From: Escherichia coli
GTDB lineage: Bacteria; Pseudomonadota; Gammaproteobacteria; Enterobacterales; Enterobacteriaceae
Assembly (NCBI RefSeq): GCF_003334815.1
Contig: NZ_QOWO01000103.1
DNA: 1,227 nt
Strand: one strand, 5' to 3'
Below are positions 1-1,227 of this stretch, in pieces. Every line of letters begins with the position of its first letter. Position 1 is the first letter of the stretch. The translations under genes and the position numbers were made by a program. The notes under the pieces are model-generated. The model worked only from the letters and a program-made list of their open reading frames with translations, made no database searches and had not been told where the DNA came from.

Positions 1-1038
1 CGCGTCGTAACGCGTCATCAGTTCGTTCAGGCGTTCTTCTTCCGCCTCCGTCAGCACCGCTTCCGGCTCCGGCAGACTGCGGTATGTTCCGGCATCCTCA
101 CGGCACTCACCGACAGGCTCCATGCGTCCGGCGCACCATTCCCAGCCTTCGGCTTCCCGAAGGTGTTCAGCGACAGCCTGGAGTTTTTCCAGCAGGGCAG
201 CATCGAGCGCAACACAGTCCACATAGCCACCCTCGTCGTCGCTGAACAAATCGGTGCGCAGTTCATCTGGCGAGAAGGCATCAGCCCCCACAAAGCGGAA
301 TTTAGTGTTCCCCGCCACCGCCACTTCACTTTCGGTCACCAGACGACGAATGGTCTGTACATCCGGTTTTCCGCCCCATCCCGACTGGCAGGCGGCTTCA
401 AACACCTGCACCTGACGCGCGGTGTCGTTCTCCAGCGCCAGCGCCTGACAGTGCTCTGTGGTGATGCGGTCTTCTGCCAGCGCATCGAGGATGACAGGCG
501 CAAGGTCTGCCAGTTTCAGCATTCGCTGAACGTGGCGGGGCGAATAGCCCAGCAAATCACCGATTTGTGCAGGCGTTTTGCCTTCCTGCGCCATCGCACG
601 GAATCCGGCAATCTGTTCGGCAGGGTGCATATCCCGACGATGACCGTTTTCAGTCATTGATGCGGCAGTCGCCAGCTCCTGCGGAATAACCTTCACGCGT
701 ACAGGCCAGTCAGCCGGAATGATGCCACGCTCTGCCAGCATGTTGAGTGCAGCCAGTCGGCGACCACCTGCGGCGACACCGTAACGGTCACCAGGCAGGG
801 TATGCACGACCAGATTCTGCAGCAGTCCGACGCCCTTAATGGACTCCGCCAGTTCGCTGACGGACTCCGCAGAATACGGCACCGTGCGCACATTCAGCGG
901 TGATTTAATCAGCGAGGCCAGCGGCACGCTCACTTCCTCCGTCTGCGCCAGCAGGGCAGACAGGACAGTTTCCTGCGTTTTTACAGATTTACGGCTTGCT
1001 TTGCGGGTGGTTTCTGGTTCACACTTCGTTACAGGCAT
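1..1038 (-). CDS. ParB-like nuclease-domain protein (ParB/Srx N-terminal domain plus HTH), N-terminal 346 codons; 3' end runs off the window
   Basis: Hand translation of the reverse complement in the frame whose codons occupy + positions 1-3, 4-6, and so on. That + frame has no TTA, CTA or TCA triplet from 1 to 1131, so the minus frame is open from the in-frame stop at 1134..1132 down to the window edge. The first in-frame ATGs are at 1044..1042 and 1038..1036. An AAGGGG Shine-Dalgarno at 1050..1045 sits 6 nt before the ATG at 1038 and directly abuts the ATG at 1044, so 1038 is preferred. The protein has a GGRRLAA motif (residues 91-97, nt 748..768) resembling ParB box II GERRxRA, preceded by LLQNLVVH, and an HTH-like segment TPAQIGDLLGYSPRHVQRMLKL (about nt 511..576). 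The family assignment is from memory of ParB-family motifs, not a database search. Confidence 0.85.
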   Translation of the reverse strand, partial: MPVTKCEPETTRKASRKSVKTQETVLSALLAQTEEVSVPLASLIKSPLNVRTVPYSAESVSELAESIKGVGLLQNLVVHTLPGDRYGVAAGGRRLAALNMLAERGIIPADWPVRVKVIPQELATAASMTENGHRRDMHPAEQIAGFRAMAQEGKTPAQIGDLLGYSPRHVQRMLKLADLAPVILDALAEDRITTEHCQALALENDTARQVQVFEAACQSGWGGKPDVQTIRRLVTESEVAVAGNTKFRFVGADAFSPDELRTDLFSDDEGGYVDCVALDAALLEKLQAVAEHLREAEGWEWCAGRMEPVGECREDAGTYRSLPEPEAVLTEAEEERLNELMTRYDA

Positions 1039-1050: not shown

Positions 1051-1066
1051 ATAATTGCTTATGTCC

Positions 1067-1090
1067 TGCCGGACGTTCGCGCGTCCGGCA
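1067..1090. repeat. Perfect 9-bp inverted repeat TGCCGGACG-N6-CGTCCGGCA (potential stem-loop or operator) in the intergenic spacer
   Basis: Base-by-base check: + 1067-1075 (tgccggacg) is the exact reverse complement of + 1082-1090 (cgtccggca), with a 6-nt spacer ttcgcg. It lies 6 nt after the DUF905-like stop and about 16 nt before the SD of the ParB-like gene. No U/T tract follows it on either strand. Confidence 0.6.
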
Positions 1091-1096
1091 CCTCTC

Positions 1097-1227
1097 TTAC
1101 TTAAGAATCCCGAAATCCCTGATGTACTGGTTCATCCAGTACCCGGCACCGTCCTCAAAATTCCAGGAGCGCCAGATCAACGTGCCATCCTGACGGACAA
1201 CCAGGCGAAAATGCGTTCCCTGATCAT
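1097..1227 (-). CDS. Small DUF905/UPF0401-like protein, C-terminal 42 codons plus stop; 5' end lies outside the window
   Basis: The minus-strand frame with codons at 1225..1223 and onward translates to [42 protein letters not shown], then a TAA stop (+ strand 1097..1099). This resembles my recollection of the E. coli YkfF C-terminus (..DDQGSHFRLVVRD..WRAWNFE..NRYIR..GI..). It is co-directional with, and 58 nt upstream of, the ParB-like start. Only a partial sequence is visible and the family recall is from memory. Confidence 0.6.

Follow-up and report, generated by a model that had tools for sequence, protein, structure and literature searches.

What does a perfect palindrome do in the short gap between two genes of a conjugative plasmid, and does it act as RNA or as DNA? 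The preliminary description of this window (the whole 1,227-nt stretch of DNA that was analysed) offered three roles: an mRNA stem-loop, an inefficient terminator, or a dyad-symmetric site for the ParB-like product of the adjacent gene. Its account of the site itself holds. Window positions 1067-1090 read TGCCGGACG-TTCGCG-CGTCCGGCA, with perfect 9-bp arms and a 6-nt loop, exactly as described. The sense RNA, from the minus strand, is UGCCGGACG-CGCGAA-CGUCCGGCA, a stem of 9 bp closed by a 6-nt loop. As the description had also stated, the element is GC-rich, with G-C in seven of the nine pairs, and no T tract follows it.

The palindrome lies between two minus-strand genes. Upstream is the 3' part of a DUF905 gene (yfjA/yubL homolog; 1097-1227, minus strand), whose translation ends ...YIRDFGILK* and whose homologs match PF06006; its reading frame closes with the stop codon TAA at 1099-1097. 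From this stop, a purine-rich SD-like GAGAGG runs on into the GUG of the stem (1091-1099, minus strand). The intercistronic stem-loop follows (1067-1090, minus strand), a feature that we define by sequence, fold, homolog comparison and compensatory changes. Next comes an A/U-rich, presumably single-stranded spacer that is marked by its fast divergence among homologs (1051-1066, minus strand). Outside the hairpin, the RBS AAGGGG (1050-1045) and the ATG (1038-1036) of yfjB/herB occupy 1036-1050 of the minus strand. The yfjB/herB ORF begins at this ATG and then leaves the window, which holds the first 346 codons of the ParB-like YfjB/HerB (1-1038, minus strand; 652 aa in full; WP_001145479.1; PMC13370423). 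The expectation that the downstream gene encodes an HTH-containing ParB-family protein is confirmed by the Pfam domains ParB_N and HTH_ParB. The intergenic position was also correctly given, about 16 nt upstream of the SD: the gap between DUF905 and ParB is 58 nt, the hairpin starts 6 nt past the stop and ends 16 nt ahead of AAGGGG, and the distance from the stem to the next same-strand start codon is 28 nt (about 30).

Sequence matches and annotation place the window in the leading region of IncI1/IncF conjugative plasmids. Many IncI1-type plasmids are 100% identical to it, and thousands of IncF, IncI and IncK plasmids from Escherichia, Klebsiella, Salmonella and Shigella are 90-99% identical. 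On the minus strand the order is ssb, DUF905 (yfjA), the palindrome, the ParB-like yfjB/herB, psiB and psiA. In plasmid pE2863-1, a single strand carries ssb, DUF905, the ParB/RepB/Spo0J-family protein (652 aa), psiB, psiA and, further on, ardA, and the ssb-to-ardA genes are all oriented toward nikA/nikB and oriT. The F homologs ssb, yfjA, yfjB, psiB and psiA are driven by the single-stranded-DNA promoter Frpo2, and Ssb, YfjA, YfjB and PsiB are made synchronously, transiently and early in new F transconjugants (PMC9849209). The IncI1 plasmid pESBL shows the same ssDNA-promoter early expression of the ssb-psiA homologs (PMC12672017). Since the genes are transcribed from the incoming strand, and given their orientation relative to nikA/nikB-oriT, we take the window plus strand to be the template for the zygotically induced genes and therefore the transferred strand (T-strand). 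In pE2863-1, which is identical to the window, ssb is annotated as a frameshifted pseudogene (L001 13388-13914). In NZ_CP085077.1 (L017 20408-26911), two genes for group II intron reverse transcriptases, at 21277-22998 and at 24462-25970, are inserted between a long Frpo/ssi-like inverted repeat and ssb, and ~6 kb separate the putative ssDNA promoter from the operon.

How exceptional is the palindrome in its own right? No other close inverted repeat in the window matches its strength, and the description of it as the sole strong palindrome there is borne out, the runner-up having only 7 bp. Taken alone, the palindrome is only modestly unusual: of 1000 versions of the whole window with shuffled dinucleotides, 4.2% contained a perfect repeat with arms of 9 bp or more and a loop of 3-12 nt. 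The local fold at the hairpin is an outlier against shuffles. The preliminary description had proposed an RNA folding calculation, and on the sense strand this gives -17.8 kcal/mol (z -4.0, 0/200 shuffles). The local DNA fold of the plus strand reaches -12 kcal/mol (z -4.9, 0/200 shuffles). A search of the replicon for further copies had been proposed as well, and it returned a single copy only. Even when as many as 3 mismatches were tolerated and the loop could be 3-12 nt long, no second site was found in the 25 kb of pE2863-1, in the complete 56.8-kb plasmid, whose one copy is identical, or in 15 kb of F, each of which has one. For the 3.6 kb around the operon, no Rfam covariance model matched at E<=1.

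Several other features of the sequence were considered at this stage. In the whole 25 kb of L001, 26 copies of the 9-mer TGCCGGACG were counted with one mismatch allowed, versus 7.5 expected. These copies are mostly on the gene-sense strand within coding regions, for example in DUF905 LPDG codons, and the excess is likely a codon or composition effect. An antisense promoter-like match, GTTACA-16 nt-TATAAT (10/12), lies at 1028-1055 of the plus strand and is aimed into the hairpin; we dropped it, as the underlying spacer is not conserved in homologs and the match is probably due to chance. A mini-ORF from a GTG in the 5' arm was dropped as well, its frame not being conserved in homologs with loops of another length. 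An RNase III site would need a longer stem. An attC, IS200/IS605 or REP-type ssDNA recombination site was likewise discarded, the element being single-copy and free of the motifs of these families.

Lack of conservation in homologous loci would have spoken against the palindrome, according to the preliminary description. Instead, among ~170 homologous loci, the hairpin is kept in every DUF905-ParB gap examined. The close set consisted of 14 plasmids spread across the identity range of the matches (IncI, IncK, IncB/O/K/Z and several IncF types). All 14 carry the arms GGTGCCGGACG / CGTCCGGCAG without change, whereas the spacer from the hairpin to the SD has almost wholly diverged. The loops of these plasmids are 6-7 nt long and read CGCGAA, CGCAAA, GGGATGA, GGAACG, GGGATCA, GGAACA or GGGACA. 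F has the same arms, in the form TGCCGGACG-GGAACG-CGTCCGGCA, between yfjA and yfjB.

The distant set came from a DUF905 profile scan with one genome per species, which yielded 61 loci. Wherever DUF905 is followed by a ParB-like gene in these loci, the gap contains a strong hairpin, with stems that differ: TGCCGGACG/CGTCCGGCA, TGCCGGATG/CATCCGGCA, TGCCGGATGC/GCATCCGGCA, TGCCGGACAG/CTGTCCGGCA and TGCCGGGCAGA/TCTGCCCGGCA. A second stem family occupies the same position, with GCCCTG(C)CGGAG/CTCCGCAGGGC in DNA and GCCCUG(C)CGGAG/CUCCGCAGGGC in RNA. This family has a one-sided bulge, and its stem in L029 is a perfect 11 bp. Over the homologous gaps as a whole, loops measure 4-8 nt and the element 23-29 nt. 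In L078, where ParB is a truncated remnant, the hairpin has decayed.

Some of the homologous loci are unusual in other respects. In pFORC82_2 (L016 1500-1530, NZ_CP026643.1), nearly the entire ParB-like gene is deleted. The junction of this deletion (...GTGCCCGACGCGCGAACGTCCG|CCGCAGATTATCGC...) falls within the 3' hairpin arm, which raises the possibility that the hairpin is a hotspot for deletions. Enterobacterial DUF905 loci also occur on contigs labelled Oscillospiraceae, Oscillibacter, Acinetobacter, Streptomyces and Chryseobacterium (L020-L023, L040, L051, L075). In L020-L023, DUF905 is 84-88% identical to that of the window and ParB, where present, 94-97% identical. These odd-taxon contigs are probably contamination or mis-binning.

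Is the conserved feature the sequence or the fold? A metagenome scan with the outer pattern GAGGTGCCGG-N11-21-CCGGCAGACA added 120 loci. All of its ParB-linked variants have at least 9 contiguous pairs, whereas in 12 of the 14 variants from truly unrelated pattern matches, pairing stops at the six pairs that the pattern itself imposes. The hairpin-forming matches are all in DUF905-ParB context except one, L115, which is unrelated and has 9 pairs. Pair counting was confined to family 1 (TGCCGG...CCGGCA); the MAFFT alignment of both stem families was not structure-consistent. In the 27 distinct family-1 variants, 100% of cells are paired, compared with 23-42% in slid controls. The variable pairs (7-9) change on both sides in three of three cases (A-U/G-C, C-G/U-A and G-C/A-U; 15 cells), and the covariation score was reached by 0/500 shuffles. 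Since six of the nine core pairs never vary, and in the metagenome loci those six are fixed by the query, the evidence for covariation comes from three pairs and from a restricted number of independent events. Within this range, the pairing patterns show that the hairpin is real and, as judged by its compensatory changes, under selection as a structure.

A stable GC-rich hairpin directly after a cistron could interrupt transcription. It might be a weak or conditional attenuator between DUF905 and herB, lowering herB-psiB-psiA relative to ssb-yfjA. However, a T tract (at least 5 T in the 8 nt after the stem) occurs in 0 of 71 distinct ParB-linked gaps; the window tail 3' of the stem is GGACAUAA. 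In addition, a consensus terminator scan did not call the site on either strand. True T-tract terminators are instead found where DUF905 ends a transcription unit, as DUF905 genes of chromosomal islands, which have no downstream ParB, mostly end in a canonical hairpin with a T tract. The hairpin of the window does not end a transcription unit: a same-strand gene starts 28 nt on, and the downstream proteins are co-induced from Frpo2, YfjB and PsiB being produced in step with Ssb and YfjA (PMC9849209). With no T tract in 71 gaps and with the downstream genes co-expressed, the inefficient terminator of the preliminary description is poorly supported, and attenuation at this hairpin seems to us a remote prospect.

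The dyad symmetry adjoins the gene for a protein with ParB_N and HTH_ParB domains, which makes an operator or parS-like site for YfjB/HerB, used for autoregulation or loading, an obvious candidate. The stems also differ between lineages whose ParB is 42-56% identical to that of the window, and on sequence alone the protein and its site could have co-evolved. Work on the protein speaks against this. In a July 2026 preprint, YfjB was renamed HerB and described as a ParB-like dimer that contains an HTH and binds CTP. It binds 156 regions of the chromosome, for which motif searches gave no consensus and no parS-like inverted repeat (PMC13370423). ChIP-seq of YfjB/HerB showed no enrichment on F (PMC13370423), even though F has the same arms. 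Furthermore, dsDNA donors do not express herB, whose promoter is active in ssDNA only (PMC13370423). The site itself lacks the fixed half-site geometry of parS: the element is 23-29 nt long with loops of 4-8 nt, the spacing of the outer half-sites ranges over 6 bp, and family 2 carries its asymmetric, one-sided bulge. Nor are there repeated or clustered sites, with one copy each in the 56.8-kb plasmid as a whole, in the 25 kb of pE2863-1 and in the 15 kb of F. Because the palindrome gives no ChIP signal or motif despite the same arms in F, is present once and is variably spaced and bulged, a HerB operator here is very unlikely, and the proposed dyad site for the ParB-like protein is left unsupported. 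Discounting the palindrome as the missing HerB site removes a tempting wrong lead, and it is in line with the published searches, which turned up no parS-like motif.

The neighbouring gaps of the operon contain similar elements. The gap between ssb and DUF905 has the hairpin GCCCCG(C/U)-5 nt-(G/A)CGGGGC (L001 13355-13371, minus strand), and the gap between ParB and psiB has CCGCCCCG-7 nt-CGGGGCGG (L017 29717-29739). Both are conserved and GC in composition, have no T tracts and show compensatory variants, for example CGCCGCCC/GGGCGGCG versus CGCUGCCC/GGGCAGCG. The DUF905-ParB hairpin is, by this comparison of gaps, one of three consecutive predicted intercistronic GC hairpins in the operon. 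Elsewhere, the klcA-DUF1380 gap holds GGGGCGGC-AAT-GCCGCCCC, and the density of GC-rich short inverted repeats in the leading region is ~4x that of the remainder of the complete plasmid.

The pair types in these hairpins bear on which nucleic acid is active. Non-Watson-Crick pairs in the target hairpin are G·U on the sense strand (internal in L180; terminal in L143, L046 and L055), and none is A·C. In counts from anchored patterns, which comprise related sequences and few independent events, the loop-proximal position 7 of the ssb-DUF905 hairpin holds U·G in 44 loci, C-G in 21 and U-A in 5, with C·A in none, and the ParB-psiB hairpin has the U·G variant in 10 loci versus C·A variants in 3. On the transferred strand, each sense-strand G·U pair would become an A·C mismatch, and this asymmetry is suggestive of RNA, rather than DNA, as the active form.

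The alternative is that the hairpin works on the T-strand (window plus strand) in the recipient, where its effect would be on complementary-strand synthesis, SSB coating, priming or the progress of RNA polymerase on ssDNA. Gene orientation and transcription from ssDNA promoters (PMC9849209, PMC12672017) indicate that the plus strand is the transferred one, and the folding energy of its DNA (-12 kcal/mol, z -4.9) and the roughly 4-fold density of GC-rich short inverted repeats in the leading region fit such an activity. A large ssDNA promoter hairpin in F has also been found to stall conversion (bioRxiv 10.64898/2026.01.09.698686). However, a hairpin of 9-12 bp is far smaller than the Frpo/ssi structures that have been shown to act in ssDNA, its placement right after each stop codon fits mRNA logic, and the tolerated sense-strand G·U pairs would be mismatched on the T-strand. 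We therefore consider an ssDNA element rather improbable. A wider idea, which we find highly doubtful, is that the post-stop GC hairpins (three in ssb-psiA, with similar ones elsewhere in the leading region) are an adaptation to the single-stranded template. Hairpins in the nascent RNA and in the T-strand at cistron boundaries might help to peel the transcript off the ssDNA. They might also limit extension of the RNA-DNA hybrid so that the mRNA is translatable, or time the passage of complementary-strand synthesis. If true, the hairpins would be structural punctuation specific to zygotically induced operons.

If the active form is RNA, translation could be its target. The stem-loop together with the AGGUG before it might control herB translation, by insulating herB from ribosomes that terminate at DUF905, by shortening the re-initiation distance, or as a site for an RNA-binding protein, for which the GGA loops suggest CsrA. 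Because the hairpin begins 6 nt past the stop, a terminating ribosome must melt the 5' arm. The (A/G)AGGUG motif 5' of the hairpin (DNA (A/G)AGGTG, window 1091-1096) is conserved in all stem families, and it is retained where the DUF905 stop lies further upstream (e.g. L047, L044). No start codon was found at SD distance after this motif in the window or its homologs. GGA is present in 14 of the 27 distinct family-1 loops, and the herB SD also holds a GGA-like sequence. On the other hand, the SD and start codon of herB are never within the hairpin, and the spacer from the hairpin to the SD varies in both length and sequence. GGA is missing from the loop of the window and from most family-2 loops, and analogous hairpins are present in the two neighbouring gaps. 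Translational control of herB is thus possible but, in our judgement, somewhat unlikely. The loci with GGA loops are L004-L015, L077, L083, L102, L143, L145, L153, L176, L180 and L201; the window variant has no GGA in its loop but carries AGGACA just 3' of the stem. Judging by these motifs, a CsrA-type site at the hairpin would be conceivable.

The reading that we prefer, and in which we have about even confidence, is that of a non-terminating intercistronic mRNA stem-loop in the ssb-psiA operon, probably a 3'-exonuclease barrier or processing element. Of the three roles in the preliminary description, the mRNA stem-loop is the best supported, by the covariation, the free loop, the sense-strand wobbles and the neighbouring hairpins, while its function is assigned by analogy. 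We infer the decay-barrier or processing role from known protective stem-loops. As in those, a stable hairpin lies within a polycistronic transcript (operon status from PMC9849209 and PMC12672017), is followed by no U tract and is conserved in structure. In E. coli, protective 3' hairpins are found at internal operon boundaries, sometimes several per operon (PMC5927463).

In the proposed mechanism, the polycistronic mRNA ssb-yfjA(DUF905)-yfjB/herB(ParB-like)-psiB-psiA is transcribed from the ssDNA promoter right after conjugative entry, and the stem-loop would form in it just 3' of the DUF905 cistron. An endonucleolytic cut might then fall in the A/U-rich spacer (1051-1066), a candidate endonuclease-accessible segment. 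The hairpin would subsequently block 3'->5' exonucleases. As an outcome, the relative stability or dosage of the upstream ssb-yfjA and downstream herB-psiB-psiA segments would be set. Three observations do not fit a decay barrier easily. The hairpin forms on the transferred DNA strand too (-12 kcal/mol), a strand that the recipient receives in physically single-stranded form. IncF/I plasmids share a strikingly invariant stem in spite of their diverged flanks, which could mean sequence-specific recognition by some factor. Finally, a model in which the hairpin is an exonuclease barrier and nothing else leaves the conserved SD-like AGGUG 5' of the stem unexplained.

We found no description of the DUF905-ParB hairpin in the literature searched, and Rfam has no model for it. 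The operon in which it lies, ssb-yfjA-herB-psiB-psiA, is expressed for minutes from incoming ssDNA and contributes to the establishment of resistance plasmids in new hosts. With a conserved hairpin behind every cistron, the relative dosage and the lifetime of these early proteins could be set by simple means. The hairpin arms are also clean mutational targets, in which disrupting and compensatory changes can be set against each other, for post-transcriptional control in the early burst.

The hairpin resembles several known systems in part. Like intrinsic (Rho-independent) terminators, it is a GC-rich stem-loop right after a stop codon; unlike them, it has no U tract in 71 variants and is followed by a co-transcribed gene, whereas DUF905 paralogs that end a unit carry real terminators. 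With parS and KorB-type operators it shares an inverted repeat beside a ParB-family gene. It differs from these in its variable 4-8-nt loop, its single copy and the unrelated stems that replace the arms in relatives, and HerB ChIP-seq gives no plasmid signal (PMC13370423). The Frpo/ssi ssDNA promoters are also hairpin-forming sequences of the IncF/IncI leading region. However, they are long imperfect hairpins (screened below -75 kcal/mol, PMC12672017) that rebuild -35/-10 boxes upstream of operons, and the Frpo-like long repeat is located upstream of ssb. The window hairpin is instead 24 nt long, operon-internal and devoid of promoter boxes. Protective intercistronic stem-loops, such as the malE-malF REP hairpin and the operon-internal structures mapped by Dar & Sorek (2018, PMC5927463), provide the remaining comparison. 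Unlike these precedents, the window hairpin is not a dispersed REP copy, being present once per plasmid where REP/BIME elements have many dispersed copies; it is set in transient ssDNA transcription after conjugation, and an SD-like motif abuts its stem. It shares with them a stable GC hairpin that has no U tract and lies 3' of a cistron inside an operon, a structure conserved in relatives, and consecutive hairpins in one operon, as in menBCE (PMC5927463). The hairpin itself belongs to a well-known kind of element.
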